A stretch of 57,976 nt of DNA from Sulfurospirillum sp. (GTDB lineage: Bacteria > Campylobacterota > Campylobacteria > Campylobacterales > QNZT01). The first letter of the stretch is position 1; the number at the start of each line of letters is the position of its first letter. Under the pieces are notes generated by a model. It did no database searches, had not been told where the DNA came from, and saw only the letters and a list, made by a program, of their open reading frames with translations. A program made the position numbers and the translations under genes. Where the stretch lies: NCBI GenBank assembly GCA_024762875.1, contig JANTGR010000003.1, forward strand, positions 1 to 57,976, written 5' to 3'. Of the stretch, positions 34,306 through 56,281 are shown piece by piece.

Positions 34306-34402
34306 AATTACGTGTTCTGAACAAACCCACTTGTGAACGACTCTACAGCCGTTTTACGGCGCAGCCTTAGTGAATAAGTGGGTTTGTTCAGAACACACAA
34401 TT
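34306..34402 (+). repeat. 97-nt hairpin repeat, copy 1
   Basis: AATTACGTGTTCTGAACAAACCCACTT...AAGTGGGTTTGTTCAGAACACACAATT. Lies between the methyltransferase stop and the pyrG start. About 91-95% identical to the other copies. Confidence 0.92.
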
Positions 34403-34447
34403 TTAATTTGGATTATAGTGTAATATCACTAAAAAAAGCGTTAAAGC

Positions 34448-35137
34448 TCACACCTTTTGAAAAATGAAAATAGTTTTATCATCCTCATCAGAAAACATCC
34501 CCATATCCTGCACTTTCACAAGTTTTAATGGTGTCAGTTTTTCAATAAGCTGCTTATCATGATAGAATTGAAAAATGGTATCCTGCTCTTTTTGATAACA
34601 ATTGCCCTGCTCTTCAAAAAGCGTCATCTCAGTTGTCAAAATTCCATCTAAAAACTCGGCATCAAGAGAGAGAAACTGTTTGCCAAAATCGGCTGACATA
34701 CTCCCGGCTGTTACCTCTTCAAATCCATGCAGTGTATTGACATCGCAGATAAAAACACCTCCTTTATTGAGCACCCTTTCTACCTCAGTCAAAAATGCCT
34801 TCAATTCATCTTGACGCATATAGTTTAACACATCACCTACTGCTACAACCCCGTCAAAATGCTCTGTGACTTTACTCAGCTGTCTATTATAAGCATCAAC
34901 ACCTTTTTGCCTGGCTATCTCGACCATCCTGGGGCTCAGATCGATGCCCATCGCCTTATAGCGCTTTTGCAAATGCAGCAAAAAGTTGCCATTACCGCAA
35001 CCCACATCCAAAATGGTCTTGATGTCATACGGTTCAAGCAGACTTAAATAGATCTGGTACAAACCTTCATATGCTGCTTCAAAACCAATCAACGGCTCTA
35101 TTTTGGCATAAAGATCCAGGTTTTCTGTCTCTATCAT
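34448..35137 (-). CDS. class I SAM-dependent methyltransferase
   Basis: 229 aa. Motif I ILDVGCGNGNFLLHL. Flanked by repeat copies 1 and 2. Confidence 0.8.
   Translation of the reverse strand: MIETENLDLYAKIEPLIGFEAAYEGLYQIYLSLLEPYDIKTILDVGCGNGNFLLHLQKRYKAMGIDLSPRMVEIARQKGVDAYNRQLSKVTEHFDGVVAVGDVLNYMRQDELKAFLTEVERVLNKGGVFICDVNTLHGFEEVTAGSMSADFGKQFLSLDAEFLDGILTTEMTLFEEQGNCYQKEQDTIFQFYHDKQLIEKLTPLKLVKVQDMGMFSDEDDKTIFIFQKV
34555..34564. repeat. TATCATGATA copy 15
   Basis: Perfect. Inside the methyltransferase gene, Y-H-D. Confidence 0.95.
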
Positions 35138-35141
35138 GATA
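35132..35141. repeat. TATCATGATA copy 16
   Basis: Perfect. Supplies the methyltransferase start codon (minus strand, 35137). Confidence 0.95.
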
Positions 35142-35171
35142 ACTCCTTTTAAGACTAGATAGGTATAGATT

Positions 35172-35268
35172 AATTACGTGTTTTGAACAAGCATACTTGT
35201 GAACGACTCTACAGCTGTTTTATGGCGCAGCCTTAGTGAATAAGTGTGTTTGTTCAGAACATTCAATT
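35172..35268 (+). repeat. 97-nt hairpin repeat, copy 2
   Basis: Same element and same orientation as copy 1. Lies in the divergent spacer between the methyltransferase and DUF1538 genes. Confidence 0.92.
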
Positions 35269-35302
35269 ACATGCCATATTATAACATAAATTATGATACA
35301 AT

Positions 35303-36817
35303 ATGACTATGAAACAGAGTATCCATATATTTTATGATGATCTTAAAAACTCTTTCAAAGATTTACTGCCGATTATCCTTGTGGTAGCATTTTTTCAGAT
35401 TGCCATTGTGCAGGCGATGCCTGAAAATCTCCTATCTATCATCATCGGACTCACCATCGTAGCCATTGGGCTGGCACTCTTTATCAGAGGGCTTGAACTG
35501 GGTATCTTTCCAATCGGTGAAAATCTTGCAACTGATTTTGCCAAAAAAGGTTCACTGTTTTGGCTGCTTTTATTTGCTTTTACCATCGGTTTTTCTACGA
35601 CTGTGGCAGAACCGGCACTCATTGCTATTGCAGAGAAAGCCGCTTCGATCAGTGCCGGAAAAGTGGATGCTTTTTTTCTACGTATGACGGTTGCTTTTTC
35701 TGTTGGTTTTGCTATCACGCTGGGTACACTGCGTATTCTGCTCGGGCATCCTATACAGTACTATATCGTATCCGGTTATATTTTGGTCGTAGTTGTCACT
35801 TTTTTTGCACCCAAAGAGATTATCGGGCTGGCTTATGACAGTGGCGGCGTCACCACTTCTACTGTTACCGTTCCTCTGGTGGCAGCACTGGGAATCGGGC
35901 TGGCCTCCAGTATCAAAGGGCGCAATCCTGTCATCGATGGTTTTGGGTTGATCGCTTTTGCTTCACTCACACCGATGATTTTTGTACAGCTTTACGGTAT
36001 CTTTGTCTATGCCTTTGTCCCTGATGCTTCAGCCCATACCCAGATACTTTCCACTGCGATAAATGAAACAGTCATAGCACACCAGCATTTTGATCCATGG
36101 GATATACTTTGGGATATATTGGCTGTAGTCAAAGATGTTGCCCCTATATTGGCAGTGATATTTTTTTTCCAATATCTTATCATCAAAAAACCAGTCGCAC
36201 ATCTGCATAAAATCATCGTGGGAATCATCCTGGTGATTCTGGGACTGTATGCCTTTATCTTAGGGTTGGAGATGGGACTTTTTCCTATCGGTGAGAGCAT
36301 TGCCTTTCAACTGACTGCCATGCATAACAACCTCCTGGTATATCTCTTTGCCTTTTTGATTGGTTTTTCAACAACGATGGCAGAACCCTCACTCTTGGCT
36401 ATCGCTATCAAAGCCCAGGAAGTAAGTGCAGGCAGTATCAAACAAAATATTCTGCGTATTGCCGTGGCAATCGGTGTAGCTTTCGGGATCGCACTTGGTG
36501 CCTACCGTATCATCGCCGGTGATCCCATCCACTATTACATTATCGTGGGATATAGCCTGGTTATCATGATGACCTATTTTGCACCGGCTTATATCATCCC
36601 TATCGCCTATGACAGCGGTGGTGTCACCACTTCTACTGTTACCGTACCGTTAGTAGCTGCTTTGGGACTGGGACTGGCAGAAAATATCGAAGGCAGAAAT
36701 CCCCTCATCGATGGTTTTGGTTTAATCGCCTTTGCTTCACTTTTTCCGATGATTACTGTGATGGGCTATGGTATCTATGTCAATTATAAACTTAAAAAAT
36801 CTAAGGAGCATTTATGA
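35303..36817 (+). CDS. tandem-duplicated DUF1538 family membrane protein
   Basis: 504 aa in two homologous halves. Each ends in [41 protein letters not shown]. Confidence 0.7.
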
Positions 36818-37164
36818 AATTTGTTGCACTTGTGACCATTATACCCGATCAGGATGAAGAGAGGGCAATAGAGATTGCCAAAGAAGCCGGTGCCGGCGGG
36901 GTGACTATTCTTCATGGTACGGATATCGGGCTAAAAGAACGTAAAGTTTTTTTCGGACTCACCTTGGAAGAGAATGTATCTCTACTCATTTTTGTACTGC
37001 CCAGAAAACTCTCTATGAAAGTCATGAAAGCGTTGAGAAAGGTATTTGATCTGGATAGTCACGATAACCGATCAATGGCTTTTACCATACCGCTAAGCCA
37101 TGTGGCGGGACTTGACAATGATGAACTGTACCAGTTTGAACAAGATATCAAAAATATACTATAG
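36814..37164 (+). CDS. P-II-like (GlnB superfamily) small regulatory protein
   Basis: 116 aa with a beta-alpha-beta x2 pattern ([32 protein letters not shown]..). ATGA overlap with the DUF1538 gene. Confidence 0.55.
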
Positions 37165-37173
37165 GAGATAAAA

Positions 37174-37569
37174 ATGTTAGTAGAAGAGATCATGACAAAG
37201 AAAGAAAATCTGGTTATCGTACCACAGATATCGACAGTGCGAGATGCCCTAAAACTGATGCGCAAATACAAAATCAAATCTGTTATTATGGATAAAAGCA
37301 ATATACATGGAGCCTATGGATTGGTAACATTTAAAAACATCCTCCAGTCTATCGTAGCTGAAGACGGGGATATCGATCTGCTCAATGTCTATGATATCGC
37401 CAATGCTCCCGCTATATCCGTTTCAAAAAAACTGGATGTCAAATATGCAGCAAGGCTGATGGTAAAAAGCAGCATCAAAAGATTGCTGGTTATCGACAAC
37501 AATGAACTATACGGGATCATCACAATGTCTGATATTATCAACGTCTTGATGGATAATATCAATGAGTAG
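37174..37569 (+). CDS. CBS-pair domain protein
   Basis: 131 aa, two CBS motifs (VEEIMTKKENLVIVPQISTVRDAL...; NAPAISVSKKLDVKYAARLMVKSSIKRLLVIDNNELYGIITMSDI). Confidence 0.8.
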   Translation: MLVEEIMTKKENLVIVPQISTVRDALKLMRKYKIKSVIMDKSNIHGAYGLVTFKNILQSIVAEDGDIDLLNVYDIANAPAISVSKKLDVKYAARLMVKSSIKRLLVIDNNELYGIITMSDIINVLMDNINE

Positions 37570-37687
37570 ATACTTGAAAATTCTTTGCACATACCACCAT
37601 GGATAATTGTGGAACTTAGGTATATTTTAAACTTTTGCAGTAGCACTATCTAATAGACCTGGGTCTATAAACATTATCTTTAAATTT

Positions 37688-37696
37688 TGATATAAT
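37688..37696 (+). promoter_or_regulatory. candidate extended -10 (TGaTATAAT) for the sensor/two-component operon
   Basis: TGnTATAAT lies 34 nt upstream of the ATG at 37730. Confidence 0.35.
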
Positions 37697-37729
37697 GCGT
37701 ATTATGATAAATAACCAGGTTTTTTAAAG

Positions 37730-38647
37730 ATGCAGATTTTTGATAACATTAGCAAAAAGATCGATAAAATAGTGCTTGTCTTTGCTTTTATTGTGCTAGC
37801 ACTCTCCTTCTATTTTGTCTATACTTTAAATCAATCTTATACTAAAAAAGAAGCTGTCCAATCCATAGACAATGCATTATTATTGACCAGAAACCTGCTT
37901 GAAGAACAGCAGCAGCATGCACTCTCCCTTTCATTACTACTTGCGCAGGATAAATCTTTTTTAAAAGCATATTATCATGATAATAGAAAAGCAGCTTATT
38001 CAATCATCAATCATAAAATCAAAAGCCTCAAAAAACTTCAAGGATACAGCTTTGACGTGCAAGTACATGATAAAAATTTGCATACTTATTTAAGAAGCTG
38101 GGATTTTTCAATCACTGGAATACCACTGGCTTCTTTCAGGGAGGGATTAGTATTGGTAAAAAAATATAAAAAACCGCTGGTTTCAATCGAAGTGGGAAAA
38201 CGCTTAAACATCAAAGCAATTTCACCTATTATGAAAGAAGAAAAATTTCAAGGTTCTATTGAAGTTATTGAGAACTTTGAACACCTAAGAGAAAAATTGT
38301 CCGAACACGGCTATACACTATTTATGCTGCTTGATAAACGCTATCTTTCCATTGCTACAACACTTATTCATCAGCCAAAAATTGCAGAGCATTTTATATT
38401 GGCAAATAAGATTTATGATAAAAATGCTTTTTGGGATTTAAAAAATGCACATGTTACAACCTTGGGAAATTATGGTTATTTTACACATGGTCAATATCTA
38501 TTTGGTTATTTTGAGCTTAAAAACTTTCACAATCAAAGTTTGGGATATTGTATTATTGCAGCAGAAACGAAAGCTCCTCTTTTGGCAGAAGAATACCACA
38601 GAAGTGTCAGTCTAGAAAAAAATAGTTCGGGAATTATCATACAATGA
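37730..38647 (+). CDS. membrane-anchored periplasmic sensor-like protein (Cache/PDC-like), no output domain
   Basis: 305 aa with a single N-terminal TM (IVLVFAFIVLALSFYFVY) and an extracytoplasmic alpha/beta region. Overlaps the response regulator gene by 4 nt. The family call is tentative. Confidence 0.45.
   Translation: MQIFDNISKKIDKIVLVFAFIVLALSFYFVYTLNQSYTKKEAVQSIDNALLLTRNLLEEQQQHALSLSLLLAQDKSFLKAYYHDNRKAAYSIINHKIKSLKKLQGYSFDVQVHDKNLHTYLRSWDFSITGIPLASFREGLVLVKKYKKPLVSIEVGKRLNIKAISPIMKEEKFQGSIEVIENFEHLREKLSEHGYTLFMLLDKRYLSIATTLIHQPKIAEHFILANKIYDKNAFWDLKNAHVTTLGNYGYFTHGQYLFGYFELKNFHNQSLGYCIIAAETKAPLLAEEYHRSVSLEKNSSGIIIQ
37973..37982. repeat. TATCATGATA copy 17
   Basis: Perfect. Inside the Cache-like sensor gene, Y-H-D. 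Confidence 0.95.
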
Positions 38648-39309
38648 GAATACTTTTACTAGAAGATGACATTGATTATAAAGAGACAGTTCATGAGTAT
38701 CTGGAATCACTGGGATATAAAGTCGATAGTTTTGAAAACGGTGATGAGGCGCTGAGTGCAATCCATTTTAAAAGTTACCAGCTGCTGCTTCTGGATATCC
38801 GGGTACCGGGTACCAATGGGTATGATATCGTCAAAACGATCAAAGCAGCGGGGGACGAAACGCCTGTTATCTTCATCACATCACTGACAGATATCGATAA
38901 TCTAAGCATCGGCTACGAGCTTGGCTGTAATGATTATATCCGCAAGCCATTTGCCTCCCAAGAGTTGAAGTATCGTATAGAACAAGTCTTGAAACTTTAT
39001 TATTTTCATTCCAATAAAGATAAAGTGGATGTAGGCAGCGGATATACGTATGACCTCAAAACCGGTGCACTTTTATATGAGCAAAATCCTGTGATACTCA
39101 CGCCCAAAGAACAAAAAGTCTGGGATTATCTCATCGCCAGAATAGACCAGTATGTACCGACAAAACAGTTGTGGGAAGATGTCTGGGAATGTAAAATGGT
39201 CACAGAAGCGGATATACGTATGTGTATTAAAAAAATTCGGGATAAAACCAGCAGAGAATTAATTGTCAGTCAAAAAGGAAAAGGATATAAGATTGATCGA
39301 AAAAGATAA
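38644..39309 (+). CDS. OmpR/PhoB-family response regulator
   Basis: 221 aa. REC domain (LLLLDIRVPGTNG, IFITS, KPF) plus a winged-helix C-terminus. Confidence 0.9.
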   Translation: MRILLLEDDIDYKETVHEYLESLGYKVDSFENGDEALSAIHFKSYQLLLLDIRVPGTNGYDIVKTIKAAGDETPVIFITSLTDIDNLSIGYELGCNDYIRKPFASQELKYRIEQVLKLYYFHSNKDKVDVGSGYTYDLKTGALLYEQNPVILTPKEQKVWDYLIARIDQYVPTKQLWEDVWECKMVTEADIRMCIKKIRDKTSRELIVSQKGKGYKIDRKR

Positions 39310-40420
39310 ACGCTATATCTATACATTGGCATTCTTTTATTCCATGATGATTATCTTTGTAGTAAGTATTCCTGCCTTTTTTTATATAAAAGTAGAGATG
39401 AACAGCTATAAACAGAGCAAGATGCAGAATTTGGATCATTATGCTTATGGCATTGAAAAGAGTATTTATGATTTTTCACATACAAAAGGGCATATATTTC
39501 ACTTTCCAAGGTCTTTATTTTACGATGCTTCTCTATATGACACAACAGGAAAAAGAATTTTTACCACTAAAGTTGAACCCTTTGACGCTAACAAACAACA
39601 AATCAGTAAAAAAATCACGCTCAGTGCAAATAGGTTACAAGCCGGATATATTATTATTTCCCAAACATTTTCTTATCGTGTGATTTATACAAAAGCATTT
39701 ATCGCAGCACTTTTTTTGGGTGCGGTGGTCTTTTTTATGACACTTTTTTTTATCAAAATCAGTCTGCGTCCGCTGGAACGGGTCAATCGTTATCTAAATA
39801 CTTTTTTCAATGATGCGATGCATGAACTTAAAACCCCGCTGGGAGTGATGCAGCTCAATCTCGAAATACTCCGTTCCAAAGAAGAAAGCAAAGTACTGCG
39901 GCGACTTTTTAACAGTATGCAAAGTATGATTTTGATTTATGAAGATATAGAGTACCATATCAAACATACACATGTCCAGTACCGCCTAGAAAAGATAGAT
40001 TTTTCACATTTTCTTTTTGAACGGGTTGCAGTTTTTCGTGATTTGGCGCAGGTCAAAGATATCACTATCGAGGAAGATATTTTTCCGGATATTTCCTATA
40101 TGATCAATCGTATCGAATTGCAGCGTATCATTGACAATACACTTTCCAATGCGATTAAATATTCCCCAAAAAATACAAAAGTCAGCGTCTGTTTAAAACA
40201 AGAGGAGAAAAAAATCACACTGACAATCAAGGATCAGGGTGTAGGTATCAAAGATACAAAAAAGATATTTCAGCGCTATAAACGCGAAGATACTATCCAG
40301 GGTGGTTTTGGGATCGGGCTCAGTATCGTGAAGCATATCTGTGACAAAAATCATATTGACATCAATGTCACGACGTCTGAACAGAAAGGTAGTACTTTTA
40401 CTTATCATATTTATAAGTAA
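39263..40420 (+). CDS. sensor histidine kinase (two TM, HisKA + HATPase_c)
   Basis: H-box FNDAMHELKTPLG, N-box NAIKYSP, G-boxes DQGVGI and GGFGIGL. The start is uncertain. TTG at 39293, with AAGGAAAAGGA upstream, is an alternative. Confidence 0.88.
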   Translation: MSVKKEKDIRLIEKDKRYIYTLAFFYSMMIIFVVSIPAFFYIKVEMNSYKQSKMQNLDHYAYGIEKSIYDFSHTKGHIFHFPRSLFYDASLYDTTGKRIFTTKVEPFDANKQQISKKITLSANRLQAGYIIISQTFSYRVIYTKAFIAALFLGAVVFFMTLFFIKISLRPLERVNRYLNTFFNDAMHELKTPLGVMQLNLEILRSKEESKVLRRLFNSMQSMILIYEDIEYHIKHTHVQYRLEKIDFSHFLFERVAVFRDLAQVKDITIEEDIFPDISYMINRIELQRIIDNTLSNAIKYSPKNTKVSVCLKQEEKKITLTIKDQGVGIKDTKKIFQRYKREDTIQGGFGIGLSIVKHICDKNHIDINVTTSEQKGSTFTYHIYK

Positions 40421-40515
40421 TTGAGTGTTTTGAACAAACACACTTATTCACTAAGGCTGCGCCGTAAAACGGCTGTAGAGTCGTTCACAAGTGTGTTTGC
40501 TCAAAACACTCAATT
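40419..40515 (-). repeat. 97-nt hairpin repeat, copy 3 (inverted orientation)
   Basis: The reverse complement aligns over all 97 nt with copies 1, 2 and 4. Begins 2 nt inside the histidine kinase stop codon. Confidence 0.92.
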
Positions 40516-40575
40516 ATTAATTACGAAAAAGTTACGCAACACTTGTTAGCATTTCATATTACAAAAAAAGGAGTA

Positions 40576-41547
40576 ATGATGAAAGTTAACACATTAAGAT
40601 ATTCAATGGCAGCATTGGCACTAGTGTCTCTTGCCGGAGCAAATCTATTTGCGGCAGATATTCCAACGGCTGCACCAAAAGCTTATCCCGATGGTGAAGT
40701 CGGTCGTATGGTCAAACTGGGCGAAGCGATCATGAATGAAACCGATACCCATCCCCTGACCAAAGATTTTGTGGGAAACAAACTCAAATGTAAAAGTTGC
40801 CACTTGCAGGGAAGCGACGGCAAACCGGGAACAGCACCTGGTATCGCCACATGGATTGGGACTGCGACTTCTTTTCCAGCGTATTCCAAAAGAGAAAAAT
40901 CTGTTCAGACACTGCAAGACCGTTCCAATAACTGTTTTATGCGAAGTATGAATGGTAAACGTCCGATTATCGATTCCGAGGCTTCTGTTGCGATGGCAAC
41001 TTATATCACTTGGCTTTCTACAAGTATGCCGATCAAACAAAACACCAAAATGCCTTGTAGTCCTATGAACTCAGACAGATGGATGGGTGGTGCCAAACAT
41101 TTTGGAAAAATGCAGAAAAAAGCAACACATGCCAATTATCTAAACGGTCAAAAACTTTATGACGCCAAATGTGCGTCATGTCACGGTCAGGATGGTGCAG
41201 GTATAGGGACTTTCCCACCACTTTGGGGAAAAGACAAAGCAGGCAAATGGCTCTCTTATAACACAGGTGCTGGTATGAGTAAACTCAACAAAGGCGCTGC
41301 ATGGGTACAATCTAACATGCCGCTTGGTCAGGGTGGTACGCTCAAAGATCAGGAAGCTGCAGACATTATGCTCTATGTCAATGCACAGCCTCATGCTAAT
41401 TTTGACTTGCAAAAACGCTTATTGCCAAAAGAAGAGATGGGATATTATAACTCTAAAGTTTTGAAAGAAAAACACTCTGTCAGAAGTAACTTTAAAGCAT
41501 TTGGTTTGGATATCGATACCATCCGTGGCGACCACAAAATAAAATAG
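40576..41547 (+). CDS. tsdA: periplasmic dihaem cytochrome c, TsdA-like (thiosulfate dehydrogenase/tetrathionate reductase family)
   Basis: Signal peptide, then two CxxCH motifs (CKSCH, CASCH). The segment KREKSVQTLQDRSNNCFMRSMNG has R-x9-R-x3-C-x3-S spacing, which I recall as the TsdA active-site/Cys-ligand region. Start set at the ATG at 40576 after AAAGGAG. Confidence 0.55.
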   Translation: MMKVNTLRYSMAALALVSLAGANLFAADIPTAAPKAYPDGEVGRMVKLGEAIMNETDTHPLTKDFVGNKLKCKSCHLQGSDGKPGTAPGIATWIGTATSFPAYSKREKSVQTLQDRSNNCFMRSMNGKRPIIDSEASVAMATYITWLSTSMPIKQNTKMPCSPMNSDRWMGGAKHFGKMQKKATHANYLNGQKLYDAKCASCHGQDGAGIGTFPPLWGKDKAGKWLSYNTGAGMSKLNKGAAWVQSNMPLGQGGTLKDQEAADIMLYVNAQPHANFDLQKRLLPKEEMGYYNSKVLKEKHSVRSNFKAFGLDIDTIRGDHKIK

Positions 41548-41558
41548 GGGTGTATAGT

Positions 41559-42905
41559 ATGAGACAAAGAAAAACAAACAAGATTATTTTATCTCTGGCT
41601 ACTGCTTCTGTACTTTCACTTGGTCTGCATGCTGCAGACTGGCTTTCTATCGCAGGAACAGAGCCATCTTTTGTCAAAAAAGGTGGTCAAAAAGTGGCAA
41701 ATCATAATACCAAGCCGCATTACTGGGGATTTATACAAGTTGGTTATCAAAAAGATTTCGGGGATATATTTGTGCCAGGAAGTGGACCAAAAGCGGGACT
41801 GAATTTAACACCTTTTGCTATGATGACACCTTCACTGAATTCCCAATCCGGTTTTGAAGTCAATCGTGCCAGACTGGCAGTGCGTGGTATGTTTGACAAA
41901 GACAATACGCTGGATTATTTCTTTATGACAGAATTGGGGGAAGATGGTATCACCAGACCTGCTGGACATCCTTCAAGCAATTATCTCACAGATGCTTCCA
42001 TCACATACAGAGGTATTCCTTATGTCAATGTGCGTCTGGGACAATTTAAATATCCTGGAAGTGAAGAGGGGCTTCGTGCCGTGTTTACTTCTACTTATAG
42101 AAACTTTTCAACTGCAGGTTCACAGCTTTTGCTGGAGAGGTTTTTACCTAACAATGCAAAAGAGGTCAGTCCCGGTATTTTTCAGGCAGCACCTGAGCAA
42201 TCTGTAGCAGCCTATCGTGACCGCGGTGTAGAACTTTTTCACACTGAAAAAATTCAGCCCAATGTAACGATGACGCTTGCCGGTATGGTCGGTAGCGGTA
42301 CAGGGCTTAGTTCTACCAATGCATCCGGAAATCTGACCTATTATGGTTATCTTGCCAGTGAATATCTCTTTGGTAAAGGAAAAGGGTACTATACACAGTC
42401 CCTAAAAGGCTTTGCATGGTATCAAAGCGGAAAGAGACAACTAAATGATACAGACTATAAAAGAACACGTTATGGTGCCGGATTTAACTATTTTAAAGAT
42501 GGTCTGAGGATCGGGGCTGAATATATGAAAGCTGAGGGTATGATCTACAATGGTGCCAAAGATGTGGATTCGGATCCCTTCGGTGTTAACTGGCAGTATC
42601 AAATCGCAGCTGATGACAGCAATGAAGCAGATGGCGGGTACTTTAATGTAGCGTATTTTTTCATTCCCAAAAAATGGGAAGCAATGGCCAGATACGACTA
42701 TCTGAACCGTCTGACCAATTCTACAGCGGGCAAAAGAGAATTTAAAACGACAACACTTGGGCTCTCTTATCATTTTAAAGGTCCTACCAGAATCGATTTG
42801 AATTATGCACTAAGAGATGCTAAAGCACCTGGCAATGCCAAGGCGCAAAAAGTACTGGACAATATAGGCAATCTTTTCTCCTTACAAGGTACGATAAAAT
42901 TTTAA
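41559..42905 (+). CDS. outer-membrane porin (beta-barrel, OprO/P-like)
   Basis: Signal peptide ...SLGLHA. Alternating beta-strand pattern. C-terminal ...LFSLQGTIKF with terminal Phe. Lies 11 nt after the cytochrome gene. Confidence 0.65.
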   Translation: MRQRKTNKIILSLATASVLSLGLHAADWLSIAGTEPSFVKKGGQKVANHNTKPHYWGFIQVGYQKDFGDIFVPGSGPKAGLNLTPFAMMTPSLNSQSGFEVNRARLAVRGMFDKDNTLDYFFMTELGEDGITRPAGHPSSNYLTDASITYRGIPYVNVRLGQFKYPGSEEGLRAVFTSTYRNFSTAGSQLLLERFLPNNAKEVSPGIFQAAPEQSVAAYRDRGVELFHTEKIQPNVTMTLAGMVGSGTGLSSTNASGNLTYYGYLASEYLFGKGKGYYTQSLKGFAWYQSGKRQLNDTDYKRTRYGAGFNYFKDGLRIGAEYMKAEGMIYNGAKDVDSDPFGVNWQYQIAADDSNEADGGYFNVAYFFIPKKWEAMARYDYLNRLTNSTAGKREFKTTTLGLSYHFKGPTRIDLNYALRDAKAPGNAKAQKVLDNIGNLFSLQGTIKF

Positions 42906-42953
42906 TGACATAGCCTTCTAGAGTATGTCAATTCTTCAATTCTCACTCTTTTT

Positions 42954-42986: not shown

Positions 42987-43035
42987 ATAATATTCTCAAC
43001 AAAATTTAAGCCTTATTGGATAAAGTAATTCTAAT

Positions 43036-43060: not shown

Positions 43061-43082
43061 ATAATTTAAAGGAATCAAGACA

Positions 43083-45736: not shown

Positions 45737-45771
45737 GATAAAAACCCCTCTATGTTATAATTTAAAAGTAT

Positions 45772-45824
45772 ATTAGGTATGTTGTGCAAATATCTTTGCA
45801 GGATATATACACAACATACCTAAT
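45772..45824. other. 15-bp perfect inverted repeat in the MFS/rdgB divergent spacer
   Basis: ATTAGGTATGTTGTG - 23 nt - CACAACATACCTAAT. The spacer contains a nested ATATC/GATAT pair. Confidence 0.85.
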
Positions 45825-45860
45825 GAGACAATTATATTCCTAATCACATTAAGGTATCCA

Positions 45861-48507: not shown

Positions 48508-48541
48508 TATAATAAAGGTTATTTTAACAGAGGAAAAAGCA

Positions 48542-48886: not shown

Positions 48887-48925
48887 ACTGCCTGGTATAA
48901 GTTGGGCTTTGCCCAATTTATGCTT

Positions 48926-49384: not shown

Positions 49385-49412
49385 AGGCTTTCCTCTTCAT
49401 AAAAATTATTTT

Positions 49413-49431
49413 CATAATGATTTTCAAATTA
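49413..49431. promoter_or_regulatory. weak Fur-box-like sequence upstream of the Fur-family gene
   Basis: CATAATGATTTTCAAATTA matches 12/19 of GATAATGATAATCATTATC, including ATAATGAT. The A+T-rich context makes chance matches likely. Confidence 0.2.
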
Positions 49432-49463
49432 TAGCATATATTTTAAGACAAAATACTTTATGA

Positions 49464-49985
49464 TTAACGTTTTAGGGTAGCAGATGTTTCCACATCAGTT
49501 GCTTGCAAAACCAATTCATCAGATGCCGTAGTCGTAATATCATAATCTGATGTCAAAAAAGCAGCTGCTGCATTTTCTGCATTTTCAAATTCATTACAAC
49601 TTGCATTGTCAAGATCTGGCTTTGGCGAAGAAACTCTTGAAAAATAGAGCGCATTGTCTTTTATTTTATAGGTGGCACTGAGTATATAACAATCTGCTAA
49701 AATATTGACTTTTGTATCGGTAAAATCCATCTGCATTTTATAGGTTCTTACACTGCCTGTTGTATCATAAAGATACTTGTCAAGATCCATTTTAAGAGAA
49801 GTCCATGTTTTCTCTTTGAGGATCGCACCTACATCTTCACTGCCACTTAATGAGCCAAAAGTCTTTCCACTGCCTACAGTATTTGGCCCAGTAGTGTTGG
49901 AGTCTGAACCTGAAGTTGCGCTGCTGTTACACCCGCTCATCCATAGAAGTGCTGCAGTTAAACCCAGTACAATGCTATTTTTCAT
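49464..49985 (-). CDS. hypothetical lipoprotein
   Basis: 173 aa, lipobox LWMSGC. No family recognised. Confidence 0.55.
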   Translation of the reverse strand: MKNSIVLGLTAALLWMSGCNSSATSGSDSNTTGPNTVGSGKTFGSLSGSEDVGAILKEKTWTSLKMDLDKYLYDTTGSVRTYKMQMDFTDTKVNILADCYILSATYKIKDNALYFSRVSSPKPDLDNASCNEFENAENAAAAFLTSDYDITTTASDELVLQATDVETSATLKR

Positions 49986-50068
49986 GATATTTTCCTATAT
50001 ATGTATTACTATATTCAATATCGTCAAAAATAGTATTTACTTTAATCCATAAAAATATGTTACACTCT

Positions 50069-50078
50069 TATCATGATA
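50069..50078. repeat. TATCATGATA copy 22
   Basis: Perfect. Lies 21 nt upstream of the 50099 start, in the leader. Confidence 0.95.
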
Positions 50079-50098
50079 ACATGATTAAAGGAGTCATA

Positions 50099-50677
50099 AT
50101 GAAATATCTTTTATTGGTATTAAGTTTATTGTTTTTTTCTGCCTGTTCACCAAAATATAAAATCGTCAAAGAGTACCATCCACCCCAACTGACAGACAGC
50201 AGCAATACCTCTGTTTGTCTTGGGCTGTGTGAAACCAAACGCAGTGCCTGCAAACAAAAATGTGAAAGCACTTTTAACAGCTGTAAAGTCAAAGCCCACC
50301 GCATCGCACTCCAGCGGTATAATAAAAAGATGCAGGATTATACAAAGCAGCTTGAAAACTATGTAGATGCTGTTGATGATAACGGATTTGAGAGTCGTTT
50401 TATCTTTATGAACTACGGGTATGGCTATCCTTACTATTATTATCCGCGTCCTTATGGATATGCCAACAGTCTGTTTTGGTATGATCCGATGCCATATTAT
50501 GGTTCTTACCGCAGCCGGCCAAAACCCAAAAAGCCAAGTTTAGAGCAGGAAAACCTCAAAGCTGAAGCAGAGTTTTGTGATCTTGACTGTGGTTGTACGC
50601 ATACTTTTGACACCTGTTATACAGGTTGTGGCGGGACTATCGTCTCCAAAAAGCTCTGCATAGAAAATTGTCCATAA
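50099..50677 (+). CDS. Cys-rich lipoprotein with Tyr/Pro-rich low-complexity segment
   Basis: Start at the ATG at 50099, 5 nt after AAGGAG. Lipobox FFSAC. GYGYPYYYYPRPYGY. Confidence 0.55.
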   Translation: MKYLLLVLSLLFFSACSPKYKIVKEYHPPQLTDSSNTSVCLGLCETKRSACKQKCESTFNSCKVKAHRIALQRYNKKMQDYTKQLENYVDAVDDNGFESRFIFMNYGYGYPYYYYPRPYGYANSLFWYDPMPYYGSYRSRPKPKKPSLEQENLKAEAEFCDLDCGCTHTFDTCYTGCGGTIVSKKLCIENCP

Positions 50678-51501
50678 TGGAGCAAAAGTCAGTACTCATC
50701 ACCGGCTGCTCAACCGGGATAGGCTATTTTTGTGCCAAAGCACTTCAAGAGGATGGTTATCGTGTTTTTGCCACAGCCAGAAAAATAGAAGATGTCACAA
50801 GGCTGAGGGAAGAAGGATTGGAGTCTTATCAGCTTGATTTGGATGATTCTGAGAGTATCAAAGCAGCACTCGATACCGTTTTGGAACAAACAGGCGGTAC
50901 CTTGTATGCACTCTTTAACAATGGCGCTTATGGACAGCCTGGTGCCGTCGAAGACCTCTCCAGAGAAGTACTCAAAGCACAATTTGAAACCAACCTCTTT
51001 GGAACCCATGAACTAACGTGCCAAGTTCTGCCTGTTATGCGAAAACAGGGCTATGGGCGCATCATCCAAAACTCTTCTATATTGGGCTTTATAGCGATGC
51101 GATATCGCGGAGCCTACAATGCCAGTAAATTTGCACTCGAAGGCCTCAGCGATACCTTGAGACTGGAGCTGAAAAACAGCGGTATCACTGTCTCTCTCAT
51201 AGAACCAGGTCCTATCCGCAGTAACTTTAGAAAAAATGCACTAGCCAAGTTCATAGCCAATATAGATCAGCAGCACACACCCTTTCGCACTATTTATAAA
51301 AAAAAGCTTGCTGCTCTTCAAAGCAGTGAAGATGTAGCCTTTACCCTGGGAGAAGATGCTGTATATCAGGCACTCAAACACGCACTGACGGATAAAGCAA
51401 AAGCACGCTACCGTGTCACTGCACCTACTACATTATTTTGGTTTTTAAAACGTCTTCTTAGTACAACACTACTTGATAAAATCCTTAGAAAAGTAGAATA
51501 A
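50677..51501 (+). CDS. short-chain dehydrogenase/reductase (SDR)
   Basis: VLITGCSTGIGY, NNGA, YNASK catalytic motif. TAATG junction with the previous gene. Confidence 0.85.
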   Translation: MEQKSVLITGCSTGIGYFCAKALQEDGYRVFATARKIEDVTRLREEGLESYQLDLDDSESIKAALDTVLEQTGGTLYALFNNGAYGQPGAVEDLSREVLKAQFETNLFGTHELTCQVLPVMRKQGYGRIIQNSSILGFIAMRYRGAYNASKFALEGLSDTLRLELKNSGITVSLIEPGPIRSNFRKNALAKFIANIDQQHTPFRTIYKKKLAALQSSEDVAFTLGEDAVYQALKHALTDKAKARYRVTAPTTLFWFLKRLLSTTLLDKILRKVE

Positions 51502-51510
51502 GGGCACTTC

Positions 51511-52260
51511 TCAAAATCCCAATTCTGCTTTTTTGTACTTCAAAACACTTCCATCATCATTGGCAAAATAGATATTTCCCTCATCATCCAGACAGATACC
51601 TTCCTGGGCAAAAGCAGGTAGTTTTTTCGTCCATGCAACTTTTTTGGCCTGCAAATCATACCCAATCAACAAATCCTCTTTATCACTCACCATATACAAC
51701 ATACTATCATGATAGAAAAGTCCGGCAATATCCTGGTGCCCTGGATCGATAATCTCTTCAATCACAACTTTTTTCTTGTGGCTCTTGGCTACTTTGATAA
51801 CCACAGAAGGATCTTTTTTGGGATATTTTTTGTTAGATTGATTAGAGAGGTAGAGTGAGTGTTGATCTTGTGTAATACCTTCCAAACCATGTTTTTTATC
51901 TTTTTTCAGGATGAGATGACCTTGAAATTCACGCTTGATACGGATCTTGTTTTTGACATGCAGCTCTTTTTGTGAAACAACCAAAATCGCATCATCTCCT
52001 TCAACAGCAAACAACAATTCACCACGGTCATCGTCACAACTCACCCCTTCCAGGTCATAATTGCCGATGCGTTTTTTCCGTAAAATTTTACCATCCTTGC
52101 CCATCTCATAAATCTTTCCTTCATCATTGGCAACAAAAAGTGTCTGAGTGATTGTGGAGTAGCAGATACCCGATGCTTCAGGGATCTTGGCAATCTCATG
52201 CGATGATCCCAAACAGCCACTTAAGAATAATAAAGGTAAAATCACTATATAACGTATCAT
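51511..52260 (-). CDS. lipoprotein, SdiA-regulated/YjiK-like beta-propeller (tentative)
   Basis: Start at [16 protein letters not shown]. Repeated D.EG motifs (ASGICYS, LEGVSCDD, LEGITQD, QEGICLDDEGNIYFANDDG). Confidence 0.5.
   Translation of the reverse strand: MIRYIVILPLLFLSGCLGSSHEIAKIPEASGICYSTITQTLFVANDEGKIYEMGKDGKILRKKRIGNYDLEGVSCDDDRGELLFAVEGDDAILVVSQKELHVKNKIRIKREFQGHLILKKDKKHGLEGITQDQHSLYLSNQSNKKYPKKDPSVVIKVAKSHKKKVVIEEIIDPGHQDIAGLFYHDSMLYMVSDKEDLLIGYDLQAKKVAWTKKLPAFAQEGICLDDEGNIYFANDDGSVLKYKKAELGF
51705..51714. repeat. TATCATGATA copy 23
   Basis: Perfect. Inside the propeller lipoprotein gene, Y-H-D. Confidence 0.95.
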
Positions 52261-52344
52261 TTGAAATCCTTTTTCAATCATAGTATAAAATATAGTATAG
52301 CAAATAATCATAAAGACGATATACAATAAAAAGGCACAAGATTG

Positions 52345-53472
52345 ATGAAACCGATAACTTTATGTATCTTCAGCTTCATTGTTTTTTGGGGCATTGCCTG
52401 CTCATCTACGCCACAAGGTGATAACTCCCAACCAAACCAACAAACAACAACAATTCCAATCCAAAACAATCCAAAAATAGAGAATGCAGCACCTCAGCCT
52501 ATCATCTATCATGATAAGGCAAATATCCCACAACTTCAAAGTGGCTATGGTACGTTCGGTACGCATGAAGTCGCTACCAAAGATATCAACAATACCCGAT
52601 ATGACTACAAGCCAGACTATAAAGCACTCCACCTTCAAACAACACTCTATTATCCAAAAGATCTTCCACTTTCACGCCCTACACTCTTCTTTTACAGTGG
52701 CTATGGTATGCACGATCCATCCGCATATAAAGGGCTTTTTTACTTTGTCGCTTCCAAAGGATATAACATCATCTTTCTGACCTGCCCCCGTGTTGAACTG
52801 GGAAATTTACCTGCTGCAACCCGTGATGCCATTGCAGCATTTTCAAGCCATATCGATATCAAAAAGGTAGGCTTTATCGGACATTCTATGGGTGCTGGTG
52901 TCACATTTTGGATGGCAAATACACTCGCTGATGAAGTTGGAGATGATGTGCGTATCCTCTTTCCAATGGCCTCAGGCTATACTGTTTTTAATGACAGCAG
53001 ACTGATTCCCGCTACAAAAGCCATTCATCTACCCCAAAACAGTAAAATGATACTACAAGTTTATGCCAGGGATTATTCTACCGATATCCGAATAGGTATG
53101 GATATCTTTTTAAATACTGACATCCAGGACAAAGAATATATGCTGATTTATGGTGACAGTCAACATATTGCCGACCATGGCAGCTGTATGAGTAAAAATG
53201 GTTATGATGTGGATGCCATGATGCAAAGAAGTATCTACAAAGCACTTGATGCTTTGATGGATGAAGGATTTAATGACAACCACCAGGCAAGAGAAAAGCT
53301 GATGAAATCTCTACAGGATGATCCTTATTTTCATCCATATATAGGTAAAATGCCTGATATAGAGATCGATAAACAATATATTCTTCCCCAGGAGCATTAT
53401 CCTTTTAATTGCTCGATCGGCGGAGGTGTAGTCAGTCAACGAAAGGAGTATTGTAACGCTCTTGGATTATAA
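52345..53472 (+). CDS. alpha/beta hydrolase lipoprotein
   Basis: Lipobox WGIAC. Nucleophile elbow GHSMGAG. Confidence 0.65.
   Translation: MKPITLCIFSFIVFWGIACSSTPQGDNSQPNQQTTTIPIQNNPKIENAAPQPIIYHDKANIPQLQSGYGTFGTHEVATKDINNTRYDYKPDYKALHLQTTLYYPKDLPLSRPTLFFYSGYGMHDPSAYKGLFYFVASKGYNIIFLTCPRVELGNLPAATRDAIAAFSSHIDIKKVGFIGHSMGAGVTFWMANTLADEVGDDVRILFPMASGYTVFNDSRLIPATKAIHLPQNSKMILQVYARDYSTDIRIGMDIFLNTDIQDKEYMLIYGDSQHIADHGSCMSKNGYDVDAMMQRSIYKALDALMDEGFNDNHQAREKLMKSLQDDPYFHPYIGKMPDIEIDKQYILPQEHYPFNCSIGGGVVSQRKEYCNALGL
52507..52516. repeat. TATCATGATA copy 24
   Basis: Perfect. Inside the hydrolase lipoprotein gene, Y-H-D. Confidence 0.95.
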
Positions 53473-54580
53473 GCATATACACACGCCAGCCTATATACTG
53501 GAAGAAAAAAAATTACGTAAAAATCTGGAACTGCTTTCGTACATACAAAAAAAAAGTGGTGCCAAAATACTCCTGGCACTCAAAGGATTTGCTTTTAAAG
53601 CAAGTTTTGAGATGATGAGAACCTATCTCTCAGGCTGCTGTGCGAGTGGATTGCATGAGGCAAAACTGGCACATGAACTTTTTAAAGGTGAAGTACATAC
53701 CTATGCGCCTGCCTTTAAAGAAGATGAGATAGAAGAAATTATCAGTATCAGTCATCATCTGGTTTTCAACTCATTTTCTCAGTGGGAAAAGTACAAAGAA
53801 CAGGCAAAGGGTAAAGTCTCCTGCGGACTGCGTATCAATCCTGAAGTCTCTGCAGCTCCTACAGATCTTTACAATCCCTGTGCCGCATACTCCCGTCTGG
53901 GCATCACCCAAGAAAACTTTTATCATGATAGACTTGAGGGCATCGAGGGGCTGCACTTTCATGCACTCTGTGAAGAAGATGCAGATGCCCTGGAAACAGT
54001 ACTTGAAAGCTTTGAAAAAAAGTTTGGCAGCGCTATATCTCAGATGAAGTGGATCAACTTTGGCGGCGGTCATCACATCACCAAAGCAGGCTATGATATC
54101 GAAAAGCTTATCATGATAATCCAGGCGTTTAAATCACGCTATGATGTGGAAGTCTATCTTGAACCAGGTGAAGCAGTAGGCTGGCAGACTGGCGTACTAG
54201 TCGCTACGGTACTGGATATCGTACATAACGGTATCGATATCGCTATCCTTGATACTTCAGCTGAAGCACATATGCCTGACACCATCATCATGCCTTACTG
54301 CTCAGAAGTGAGAGGTGCTGGCAGGACAGGTGAGAAACCCTACGATTACAGACTGGCAGGCAATACCTGTTTGGCAGGTGATATCATGGGGGATTACTCT
54401 TTTGACAGTCCGCTCAAAGTAGGCGATAAAATCATCTTTAAAGACCAGATCCACTATACTATCGTCAAAAATACCACCTTCAACGGTATCCCCCTGCCTT
54501 CTATCATGATAGAAAAAGAGAATGGAAAAGTAGAACTTGTTAACCAATTTGGATATGATACCTATAAAAACCGGCTCTAA
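53462..54580 (+). CDS. nspC: carboxynorspermidine decarboxylase
   Basis: 372 aa, PLP-dependent group IV decarboxylase-like (LALKGFA, INFGGGHH, EPGEAV, CLAGD). TTG start overlapping the previous gene. Confidence 0.82.
   Translation: MDYKHIHTPAYILEEKKLRKNLELLSYIQKKSGAKILLALKGFAFKASFEMMRTYLSGCCASGLHEAKLAHELFKGEVHTYAPAFKEDEIEEIISISHHLVFNSFSQWEKYKEQAKGKVSCGLRINPEVSAAPTDLYNPCAAYSRLGITQENFYHDRLEGIEGLHFHALCEEDADALETVLESFEKKFGSAISQMKWINFGGGHHITKAGYDIEKLIMIIQAFKSRYDVEVYLEPGEAVGWQTGVLVATVLDIVHNGIDIAILDTSAEAHMPDTIIMPYCSEVRGAGRTGEKPYDYRLAGNTCLAGDIMGDYSFDSPLKVGDKIIFKDQIHYTIVKNTTFNGIPLPSIMIEKENGKVELVNQFGYDTYKNRL
53921..53930. repeat. TATCATGATA copy 25
   Basis: Perfect. Inside nspC, Y-H-D. Confidence 0.95.
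54109..54118. repeat. TATCATGATA copy 26
   Basis: Perfect. Inside nspC, I-M-I. Confidence 0.95.
54502..54511. repeat. TATCATGATA copy 27
   Basis: Perfect. Inside nspC, I-M-I. Confidence 0.95.
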
Positions 54581-54588
54581 GGAAAATA

Positions 54589-55512
54589 ATGGACTATCAA
54601 GCGGTATTGGAAGAAATTTATAAAGAGATTCAACCACATTTTGGTGAAGGTAAAGTAGCTGACTATATCCCGGCTCTCTCTTCTATCGATCCCAGGCAAT
54701 TTGGCTTTTCTATCATCACACAAGATGGCAGCACCTACAATGTCGGTGATACGCAAACTGACTTTTCCATCCAGAGTATCTCCAAGCTTTTTACCTTTAC
54801 GCTTGCTTTGGATATCTACAGCCGTGATTTATATACACGTCTGGGAGTTGAACCTTCAGGAAATCCTTTCAATTCGCTGGTTCAACTCGAATATGAACAG
54901 GGAAAACCAAGAAATCCTTTTATAAATGCCGGTGCTATCGTTGTCACTGACAGCCTCATCGCACACTATCAGGATGATTATAAAGCCTTTGAAGTGATAC
55001 TAAACTTCATACGAGATGTCGCAGATGACAATACTATCTCTTTTGATCCTGAAGTATCAAGCTCTGAAATGGAACATGCACATCGCAATCTGGCACTTGC
55101 CAACTTGATGAAAAGTTTTAACAATTTAGACAATGAGCCCAATCAGGCGGTACAAACCTACTTCAAGCACTGTGCCATCAGTATGAATACACAAAAACTC
55201 TCTAGAGCCATGCTCTATCTTGCCAATGGCGGCACAGACCCTCTTAGCAATAAAAAATACCTCACCCCGCAGCAGACCAGACGGATCAATGCTGTCATGC
55301 TCACCTGTGGCCACTATGATGCATCGGGTGAATTTGCTTTTCACGTGGGATTGCCTGGCAAAAGTGGTGTCGGCGGCGGTATCGTCGCAGTTGTACCAGG
55401 GAAAATGGGAATATCTGTTTGGTCACCTGCACTCAATCACTATGGAAATTCTCACCTGGGGACACTCGCTCTTCAAAAATTTGTCGAAAAAACAGGACTT
55501 TCTATCTTTTAG
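54589..55512 (+). CDS. glsA: glutaminase A
   Basis: 307 aa. FSIQSISKLFTF (Ser-x-x-Lys), GLPGKSGVGGGI. Confidence 0.92.
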   Translation: MDYQAVLEEIYKEIQPHFGEGKVADYIPALSSIDPRQFGFSIITQDGSTYNVGDTQTDFSIQSISKLFTFTLALDIYSRDLYTRLGVEPSGNPFNSLVQLEYEQGKPRNPFINAGAIVVTDSLIAHYQDDYKAFEVILNFIRDVADDNTISFDPEVSSSEMEHAHRNLALANLMKSFNNLDNEPNQAVQTYFKHCAISMNTQKLSRAMLYLANGGTDPLSNKKYLTPQQTRRINAVMLTCGHYDASGEFAFHVGLPGKSGVGGGIVAVVPGKMGISVWSPALNHYGNSHLGTLALQKFVEKTGLSIF

Positions 55513-55518
55513 AATCTA

Positions 55519-56160
55519 TTATGAAAAGCCATACAGTTTTCTAAAAAAATTCTCAATAATATTCATATCGAAAGATTTTTCTATCTTTTTTGTAGCAAAT
55601 TGACTGTTGGCATAGGCTTTTTGAGTTGTATTAAAATGTTCTTTTTTCCCTGCAGTCGGCCTAAAATCATGCGTACCTTCCAACTTGGCCCACTCCATGA
55701 TCTGGCGTAATTCACCACTGTCAAGCCAATAACCATGATCTACACAACGATCGATAATCACCCCGCTTCGTGACTGATAATTCATACGCAGCATCATCTT
55801 TTGACACTCGGGACATTTTTTGTAACGTACTTTTTTTTCACGGGTGAGTGGATGGTTTTTGATCTCTTGCAGTCTGACAAAATCATAGCGTTCAGACTTG
55901 ACGATCTCCTGCTCCATAATCGCCTCTATCTCTCCAAAATCCAAAAAAATCCCATCACAGTGTTTACACTGCTCTATATACAGTTTTTGATACTTGTCAA
56001 GGAGACGGATCTCGAGTAAAAGTTCGCAATTGGGACATATTCGCTCAGTATCGTGCTTTGTAGTGTAAGTTTTTTTGAGGTCGATTGCCTGACGTGTATG
56101 ACAGTAAGGACAGATGATGCCCTCTATCGGTGCACCACAGTTTTGACACTGATATCTCAT
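55519..56160 (-). CDS. zinc-ribbon protein (two TFIIB-type zf domains preceded by an extra CxxC pair)
   Basis: 213 aa. CQNCGAPIEGIICPYC. CPNC...CKHCDGIFLDFGEIEAIME. CPECQ...RCVDHGYWLDSGELRQIMEW. Confidence 0.6.
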   Translation of the reverse strand: MRYQCQNCGAPIEGIICPYCHTRQAIDLKKTYTTKHDTERICPNCELLLEIRLLDKYQKLYIEQCKHCDGIFLDFGEIEAIMEQEIVKSERYDFVRLQEIKNHPLTREKKVRYKKCPECQKMMLRMNYQSRSGVIIDRCVDHGYWLDSGELRQIMEWAKLEGTHDFRPTAGKKEHFNTTQKAYANSQFATKKIEKSFDMNIIENFFRKLYGFS

Positions 56161-56184
56161 AAAAAAACCTTCTTTGATGTTTAT

Positions 56185-56281
56185 AATCGAGTATTCTGAA
56201 CAAACCCACTTGTGAACGACTCTACAGCCGTTTTACGGCGCAGCCTTAGTGAATAAGTGTGTTTGTTCAGAATACTCGATT
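56185..56281 (+). repeat. 97-nt hairpin repeat, copy 4
   Basis: AATCGAGTATTCTGAACAAACCCACTT...AAGTGTGTTTGTTCAGAATACTCGATT. Lies between the zinc-ribbon gene start and tRNA-Glu. Confidence 0.92.

Follow-up and report, generated by a model that had tools for sequence, protein, structure and literature searches.

A dispersed family of 97-nt hairpin repeats, probably a mobile non-coding element, in the chromosome of an apparent Sulfurovaceae bacterium from hydrothermal vents

The 57,976-nt stretch of contig JANTGR010000003.1 analyzed here (referred to below as the window) carries four copies of a 97-nt intergenic hairpin repeat, which occurs in dozens to hundreds of dispersed copies per genome. 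[quoted passage not shown] Among small non-autonomous palindromic repeats, a known class, the element constitutes a new family. What sets it apart is a fixed loop combined with variable arms, which is the reverse of the usual MITE/REPIN pattern. The window itself is ordinary housekeeping chromosome (a ribosomal protein operon, secY, pyrG, recJ, glnS, ribonucleotide reductase, two-component systems, and tRNA-Glu) and is covered nearly completely in hydrothermal-vent metagenome runs. A DUF1538 protein used as a probe has its closest matches, at 77-84% identity, in metagenome-assembled genomes (MAGs) labelled mostly Sulfurovum, Sulfurovaceae, or Campylobacterales, and the host appears to be an uncultured Sulfurovaceae (Sulfurovum-like) bacterium from deep-sea hydrothermal vents.

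The copies are located at 34306..34402 (copy 1, + strand), 35172..35268 (copy 2, +), 40419..40515 (copy 3, − strand), and 56185..56281 (copy 4, +), exactly where a first-pass annotation of the window had placed four 97-nt copies. The near-identical core of about 50 nt quoted there corresponds to a 51-nt central pattern, found with 0, 2, 0, and 0 mismatches in copies 1-4, while no match is expected from shuffled sequences. A covariance model built from the copies and run without filters over the whole window returned these four copies and no fifth. In the fold of every copy, position i pairs with position 98-i to form a stem of 23-29 bp, and a GCCGU-UUU-ACGGC mini-hairpin stands in the loop, which agrees with the proposed structure. 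In copy 1, according to the fold and the pair table, the 5' arm (element positions 7-29; 34312..34334, +) pairs with the 3' arm (positions 69-91; 34374..34396, +). Between them lies the 39-nt loop, or core (positions 30-68; 34335..34373, +), in which the fold places the mini-hairpin GCCGT-TTT-ACGGC (positions 43-55; 34348..34360, +). The RNA fold energies of the four copies range from −36 to −52 kcal/mol, with z-scores of −5 to −12 against shuffles. The element is about 89-97 bp long, its ends read (AATTGA)GTGTTCTGAAC..., and its 23-29-bp arms, which constitute terminal inverted repeats, are AT-rich and form no hairpin of their own. On the reverse strand, one frame runs without a stop through the full element (...VLNKPTYSLRLRRKTAVESFTSGFVQNT); it is out of frame with the genes downstream. 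Peptides translated from the element in six frames gave no match among 5.8 billion proteins, and no protein there reads through it.

Copy number was estimated from sequencing depth in metagenome runs (designated X1, X2, X6, X7, X12, etc.; loci fetched from relatives are designated L001, L005, and L082-L098). In X1, the core has a depth of 14,000-15,300, compared with 17-46 for single-copy contigs of the window, and in X2 the values are 3,568 and 8; in these two runs, the core is about 400 times deeper than its single-copy flanks. Contigs that carry other copies have a depth of 17-40, equal to that of the window's own contigs, which indicates that many copies reside in the same genome. When contigs of the source run were compared with copy 1, the matches ended at 34305/34306 and at 34402/34403, so the repeated unit has the boundaries given in the annotation. 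The flanks of the other copies are AT-rich and mutually unrelated. Four copies per 58 kb scale to about 140 per 2-Mb genome, and an estimate from the depth ratio reaches about 400. The core was also detected in runs of seven studies (vents, microbial mats, and plastisphere), in which the depth ratio corresponds to roughly 16 to 100-plus copies per genome equivalent. Depth declines steadily from the center of the element outward, which shows that the center is common to all copies and that the arms differ between them.

Two further copies were encountered in incomplete or altered form. In X12, the arms of a seventh copy were read from two loose ends of a single contig, GTGTTCTGATTAAAC.../...GCTTAATCAGAACAC. 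In X7, a 320-nt contig (at window positions 40414-40491) carries a copy apparently without the second arm, in which the core is followed by a small hairpin, GGGTGTAT...ATACACCC; truncated or rearranged copies therefore exist.

The core pattern gave no matches in the GTDB representative genomes and none in viral contigs, plasmids, or phages; in JGI metagenome contigs, it gave a single match, L001. Searches with BLAST and the covariance model through about 1.2 Mb of homologous Sulfurovaceae loci, drawn from more than 80 related genomes, detected no copy. The methyltransferase encoded beside copy 2 had no record of its own; its closest relatives are only 81% identical, and the 97-nt element is absent there as well. 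No match to the core sequence was found in the literature searched. On the strength of these searches, the family appears to be confined to a few lineages and to match nothing catalogued. Among the outcomes that the annotation had named as speaking against its proposal was identification of the repeat as the terminal part of a known insertion sequence (IS) or MITE with target-site duplications, and this outcome was not obtained.

Comparison with relatives demonstrated that the element is an insertion. The pyrG site is empty in 13 loci of relatives from three lineages, where a 16-nt spacer lies between TATAAT and the leader motif AATGGATAT; between these motifs, the window has the remaining flank and the 97-nt element. 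A second site was found in L001, where a diverged copy is located upstream of a small open reading frame (ORF) and the xpaC-telA operon. Two relatives, L085 and L086, were obtained by way of XpaC; look-ups of two other proteins (P0121 and P0122) gave only L001 once more and a fragment of 1.1 kb. The element stands at exactly the same point in L085 and L001, L086 is empty, and the left 72 nt are 94-97% identical among the three. The empty site of L086 reads GAAATAACA|TTTAT and the filled site of L085 reads AAAATAACA[AAGTGTTC...GAACGCGT]TTTAT, with no duplicated base at the L085 or L001 junctions relative to L086, in what is one clean filled/empty pair. The suggestion of a REP/MITE-like element (REP, repetitive extragenic palindrome) is thus upheld by a high-copy dispersed repeat, inserted relative to its relatives, with one such pair. 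The left flanks vary, being AACA at L085/L001 and ATT, AAT, or TAT at the window copies.

Some of these insertions appear to be old. The three loci L001, L085, and L086 are nearly equidistant (83-85% identity over kilobases), L001 and L085 being marginally closer to each other; these two are 85% identical over 4.4 kb and have the insertion in common. The simplest history would be one insertion before the L001/L085 split. The insertion of copy 1 is also present in a diverged population of X6, and copies 1 and 4 occupy the same sites in the X6 and X7 populations; about 7% of the letters in the X6 contig that spans copy 4 are different from the window. Insertions stay put even where the genomes around them have diverged by as much as about 15%. 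At the four window sites, no presence/absence joints were found in X1-X7, and no empty site of the window type was seen.

The loop of the element is near-invariant, and its arms change freely, mostly keeping their pairing. There are no substitutions in the 39-nt core among copies 1, 3, and 4, L001, and L085. Between copies of the window type and of the L001/L085 type, 14-16 of 46 arm positions differ (30-35%), compared with 0 of 39 in the loop. The orthologous copies of L001 and L085 differ at 6 of 46 arm positions, and their loops differ by one inserted base and no substitution. Both mini-hairpin changes of copy 2 yield wobble pairs (U.G and G.U). In metagenomes, loop variants each account for about 1% of depth, and X12 contains one copy with 8 changes in 47 nt.

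Changes in the arms are compensated across the stem. Every compensatory pair that had been listed from the sequence is present: 4/94 (T-A versus C-G), 9/89 (G-C versus A-T), 12/86 (C-G versus T-A), and 22/76 (C-G versus A-T, with C.T in copy 4). Both sides are changed in 9 pairs among five copies, a number reached by none of 500 shuffles, and in 7 pairs among six full copies, reached by 2 of 500; the pairing and covariation score observed in the six copies was reached by none of 500. In the six copies, 98.2% of stem cells are standard pairs on the listed strand, compared with 86.9% on the opposite strand, and sliding the partner by 1-3 columns lowers pairing to 35-54%. In the copy of X12, two more pairs are compensated relative to the window type, and there is an additional G.U on the same strand.

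The single-sided stem changes are directional. Within stem positions 7-91, all 19 give G.U on the listed strand and A.C on the other, and none gives A.C on the listed strand. The 19 cells represent about 14 separate events (their independence being a matter of judgment), and 14 to 0 corresponds to a probability of about 1e-4 in a two-sided sign test. Copy 2 has seven G.U pairs, on the + strand only, one of which is the 28/70 pair found throughout the family. The earlier observation that most unpaired single changes give G.T rather than A.C stands within positions 7-91, but it fails at the outermost pairs 5/93 and 6/92 of copies 1 and 2, which are the only A.C pairs present. Covariation together with this one-sided pattern sustains the preference expressed there for a conserved single-strand structure over neutral decay.

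The alternative that survives best, although we regard it as unlikely, is a classical cut-and-paste MITE. According to this account, a DDE transposase (of the IS630 or IS5 type, for example) encoded elsewhere would bind the ends GTGTTCTGA...TCAGAACAC and insert the element into TA or AATT, creating a short palindromic duplication, and the arms would be kept complementary by template switching in quasi-palindromes instead of by selection on RNA. Such a MITE would be expected to have long terminal inverted repeats, no coding capacity, and many intergenic copies, as the element does. The outer ~9 bp of the arms (GTGTTCTGA) are the best-conserved arm segment across subfamilies, the flanks are AT-rich, and the window copies have TA at 6 of 8 ends and AATT at 6 of 8. 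However, no duplication is present in the clean filled/empty pair, and copy 4 ends in AATC...GATT, an inverted and not a direct repeat. Moreover, the loop, not the ends, is the most conserved part, and arm-to-arm correction alone would not leave only G.T and never A.C on one strand. No transposase was found in Pfam scans of the window proteins, in agreement with the annotation, which had associated none with the repeat.

The preferred reading, a mobile hairpin kept on a single strand, draws further on the decayed copies (copy 2, L001, and L085), in which the hairpin is clear as RNA and far weaker as DNA. For L085, the listed strand folds as RNA at −29.5 kcal/mol (z = −3.9) and the other strand at −19.8 (z = −0.8), while the listed strand as DNA, at −9.8 kcal/mol (z = −0.6), is indistinguishable from chance. 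The corresponding values for copy 2 are −36.1 (z = −5.1) and −19.6 kcal/mol (z = −1.5) as RNA, and −13.0 kcal/mol (z = −1.9) as DNA. The strand that folds well corresponds to the sense strand of the operon downstream in L001 and L085, and to that of the DUF1538 gene in copy 2; in copy 1, the two outermost wobble pairs favor the strand of the pyrG mRNA. That the hairpin of decayed copies survives as RNA, on the strand of a neighboring gene's mRNA, fits RNA-level selection after insertion. Taken over the copies, the pattern would fit selection on whichever strand is transcribed locally, without proving it.

The position of the copies relative to genes is also consistent with transcription of the element in leaders. 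Copy 1 lies between the stop codon of a methyltransferase gene (34448, −) and the start of pyrG (34285, −), 20 nt upstream of the pyrG ATG, and the pyrG mRNA would carry its reverse complement. The pyrG -10 box TATAAT (34412..34417, −), 9 nt from the edge of copy 1, is kept in relatives (aligned with L082, L084, and L089-L098). Copy 2 lies between the divergent genes of the methyltransferase (ATG at 35137, −) and the DUF1538 protein (ATG at 35303, +), 34 nt from each, and an extended -10 box of the methyltransferase gene, TGTTATAAT, could be read at 35278..35283 (−), 9 nt from its edge. In L085 and L001, the element starts 4 nt after a TGCTTAAAAT -10 box and lies about 22-30 nt upstream of the small ORF. 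These three boxes are putative promoter elements, an assignment helped by their conservation in relatives; if they are in use, each leader would begin with the element itself. Copy 3, whose first bases overlap the stop codon of a histidine-kinase gene (40418-40420), is 62 nt upstream of the likely ATG of a SoxA/TsdA-like cytochrome c gene. Copy 4 is 24 nt upstream of the start of a zinc-ribbon gene (56160, −) and 80 nt upstream of tRNA-Glu (56362-56436). At copies 3 and 4, only weaker -10-like hexamers are present, 1-7 nt away. Across loci, the distance to the start codon is 20-62 nt. The orientation relative to the nearest downstream gene is shared by all four window copies and is reversed in L001/L085. 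This positioning could reflect an insertion preference or the survival of insertions that spared the promoter and the ribosome-binding site, between which five loci cannot discriminate.

The same evidence can be read in terms of a cis-acting RNA module recruited by the host, in which the leader hairpin, with its 39-nt loop bound by a common trans-acting protein or RNA, would define a co-regulated gene set, mobility having only spread it. We consider this account distinctly improbable. It would explain the absence of loop substitutions beside 30-35% arm divergence, the retention of orthologous copies with an unchanged loop over 15% genome divergence, the G.U-only changes, the stability of L085 as RNA and not as DNA, the location between a -10 box and a ribosome-binding site, and the shared orientation of the window copies. 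On the other hand, L001/L085 are oriented oppositely with respect to mRNA, and an asymmetric loop cannot present the same sequence both ways. The genes concerned (pyrG, methyltransferase, cytochrome c, zinc-ribbon protein, and xpaC-telA) have no evident common theme, hundreds of copies exceed what is expected of a regulon, and gene conversion could equally keep the loops alike.

If the repeat is a mobile element kept as a single-stranded hairpin, as we prefer, the following mechanism may be proposed. The unit that is copied and/or selected would be the single-stranded hairpin; its stem would need only to pair, and a factor encoded at another place in the genome would recognize the sequence of its loop. 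The lack of a duplication together with the one-strand signature suggests a mover more like a single-strand enzyme of the Y1/HUH type than a cut-and-paste DDE transposase. Copies sited just downstream of -10 boxes would be transcribed as the first part of mRNA leaders, in which the 23-29-bp RNA stem could serve as a 5' stabilizer or an RNase III site, by analogy with Correia elements. A bolder version, which we hold to be a long shot, is a new type of single-strand mobile hairpin that would have the 39-nt loop, not the ends, as its recognition site, would enter the melted DNA of open promoter complexes without duplication, some few nucleotides past the -10 box on its downstream side, and would thereby install a 5' RNA stem-loop that the host keeps. 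If it were true, the mRNAs of unrelated genes would receive a ready-made 5'-terminal stem-loop, kept by the host at the RNA level.

Several observations weigh against the reading of a mobile hairpin maintained on one strand. At the second insertion site, a separate 5-nt indel occurs five bases to the right of the junction; it may be a footprint, or a short duplication may be hidden by it, and this is the sole clean pair. The TA and AATT at the window copies are palindromic and could equally be a stem extension or a duplication. Identical cores could reflect gene conversion among many copies, not selection. The covariation statistics come from six full sequences and the arms of one more, which are few and related, and arm-to-arm correction at the DNA level can yield compensated changes without selection. 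The one-sided G.U pattern could stem from strand-asymmetric mutation (C>T and A>G); copy 2 shows five C>T changes and one A>G on the listed strand. In copies 1, 3, and 4, it is the other strand that the mRNA of the adjacent gene would contain, and one G.U of copy 3 is on a strand absent from the adjacent mRNA. The closeness to -10 boxes was assessed visually, in AT-rich DNA, and is evident at only three of five loci. Lastly, Pfam scans, covering the window only, detected neither the transposase that mobility would call for nor a RAYT, a Y1_Tnp domain, or a reverse transcriptase.

Two other readings fare worse than a mobile hairpin. It is very improbable that the repeat is a DNA architectural site, kept for chromosome organization through cruciform extrusion or the binding of a nucleoid or topology protein, as proposed for REP/BIME sequences with gyrase and IHF; the annotation had listed a protein-binding cruciform among its three suggestions. 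A long perfect palindrome with a conserved interior and many dispersed intergenic copies would suit such a role, but both strands fold in double-stranded DNA or a cruciform, so a G.T-only pattern on one strand is not expected; in addition, old copies are unstable as DNA hairpins (L085 and copy 2, with the z-scores of −0.6 and −1.9 given above), and no binding motif was identified. Independently transcribed small RNA (sRNA) genes, the annotation having offered an sRNA family as a possibility, or mobile intrinsic terminators are scarcely credible in spite of the strong hairpin and the location of copy 3 directly after a stop codon, given that the copies share no promoter or terminator, have unrelated flanks, lie inside the leaders of unrelated genes, and in four of five loci (copies 1, 2, and 4 and L001/L085) are upstream of genes and not after them, that no T-run follows the stem, and that a terminator scan gave no hits at the elements. 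Among Rfam 15 families, only tRNA-Glu passes the gathering score, and none does for the element; at E <= 10, the elements gave only chance matches to miRNA precursors, of 15-20 bits against gathering scores of 74-195. Integron attC sites, retrons, and terminators were also set aside on anatomy.

As a metagenome assembly, a contig that crosses four repeat copies could be mis-joined at any of them. Gene order shared with relatives supports the joins at copies 1 and 2. Copy 3 lies within a block of about 5.3 kb (37730-42905) that is extra relative to L082/L084 and is located between the CBS-domain and zinc peptidase genes, at the latter of which conserved gene order picks up again. The block contains a dCache sensor, a response regulator, the histidine kinase, copy 3, the SoxA/TsdA-like cytochrome c, and a 451-aa protein without a Pfam match. 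The left side of copy 4 is confirmed by contigs of X6 and X7, and the join on its tRNA-Glu side comes from the window assembly alone.

The gap between the DUF1538 and methyltransferase genes is variable among relatives. In the window (35138-35302), it holds copy 2 only; L082 and L083 have cas9-cas1-cas2 there (L082:5008-9433), and L084 has an ABC-transporter/efflux operon (L084:3391-9749). In L005 (1553-1717), the gap carries a different palindromic insertion of about 165 nt with perfect 24-bp terminal inverted repeats, CCCAAATTATGCAATAGCACATTG...CAATGTGCTATTGCATAATTTGGG, unrelated in sequence to the 97-nt family. Elsewhere in the window, a 55-nt hairpin with a stem of about 24 bp and a 3-nt loop is found at 45771-45825, between the divergent MFS transporter and Ham1 genes; it was matched by the covariance model through its stem only and was rejected as a plain hairpin that lacks the core and is unrelated. 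A palindromic 10-mer, TATCATGATA, is found 28 times in the window compared with 0.14 expected (for example, at 347-356, 35132-35141, and 57766-57775), in both genic and intergenic positions, and at least once, in the methyltransferase gene, it spans the start codon. It was also seen in L001, L005, and L082, and its frequency of about one per 2 kb resembles the density of uptake sequences or highly iterated palindromes.

Much work has been done on small palindromic repeats in Proteobacteria (for example, Neisseria, Pseudomonas, and enterics), but hardly any in vent Campylobacterota. The abundance of the present family amounts to about 1-2% of the genome, and the repeat breaks short-read assemblies of these organisms at every copy, which affects MAG quality for an ecologically important group. 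The fixed loop with compensating arms, the duplication-free insertion, and the one-strand G.U pattern make movement as a folded single strand testable, and the family also allows the question of host recruitment as an mRNA leader structure to be asked.

With regard to known systems, ERIC/IRU, RUP, Nezha, and other bacterial MITEs have been reviewed (PMC3184786, PMC10969869). The 97-nt element resembles them as a small, imperfect, non-coding, and intergenic palindrome, and those repeats are often transcribed with neighboring genes; it differs in that no sequence similarity to them was found in the collections searched. Like MITEs in general, it is shorter than about 300 bp, non-coding, dispersed, bounded by terminal inverted repeats, and present or absent at orthologous sites. 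Unlike in MITEs, a fixed-length target-site duplication is lacking in the one clean case, and the usual arrangement of conserved ends around a variable interior is reversed.

Elements of the IS200/IS605 group (such as IS608) insert without duplication and are recognized strand-specifically as a folded single strand. Their ends carry two different small sub-terminal hairpins, and they insert 3' of a fixed tetra- or pentanucleotide. The present element shares duplication-free insertion with them, in one clean case, and presumably recognition of a folded strand. In contrast, it is one long palindrome and has no fixed left flank. Transposition of single-stranded DNA by Y1/HUH enzymes is discussed in PMC3116915.

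REPINs are REP doublets that form hairpins and are mobilized by RAYT tyrosine transposases (Bertels & Rainey 2011, PMC3116915). In their case, the ends (16-mers overlapping REP) are invariant and the spacer varies (PMC3116915), whereas here the loop is invariant and the arms vary. As in REPINs, the element is extragenic, non-coding, about 100 nt long, and present in tens to hundreds of copies; the whole unit is one long single-stranded DNA (ssDNA) or RNA hairpin with compensatory changes on its two sides; it persists for long periods with vertical inheritance; and the mover proposed for REPINs acts on ssDNA, which would fit the duplication-free insertion observed here. Each REP is a short, GC-rich palindrome whose foot bears a GTAG or CGTC tag (PMC3733652). 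In contrast, the arms described here are AT-rich without a REP-like GC-rich sub-hairpin, and no GTAG/CGTC tag stands at the foot of the terminal hairpin; the sole GTAG is in the loop, on the 3' side of the mini-hairpin, in a mirror image of the REP arrangement. Membership in the GTAG or CGTC REP superfamilies was rejected on this tag arrangement, and the supplements of PMC3733652 hold no matching sequence. In its behavior, the family is closest to REPINs, but the REPIN anatomy fails.

Correia elements (CREE/NEMIS, PMC2649163) are similar in having an inverted repeat around a conserved core, a length of about 100-150 bp, and hundreds of copies near gene starts. They share no sequence similarity with the 97-nt element, and their host is Neisseria, not a member of Campylobacterota. 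Their 26-bp terminal repeat is unlike the (AATTGA)GTGTTCTGAAC ends. Correia elements also generate TA duplications, form promoters at their ends, and contain an IHF site, whereas the one clean insertion here lacks a duplication, TA is found at 6 of 8 window ends and is absent at L085, and the -10-like boxes are in the flanks, not in the element. Nevertheless, Correia elements are co-transcribed into mRNA, where their hairpin is a substrate of RNase III (PMC2649163), and this processing provides the model for the leader effect proposed for the 97-nt element.

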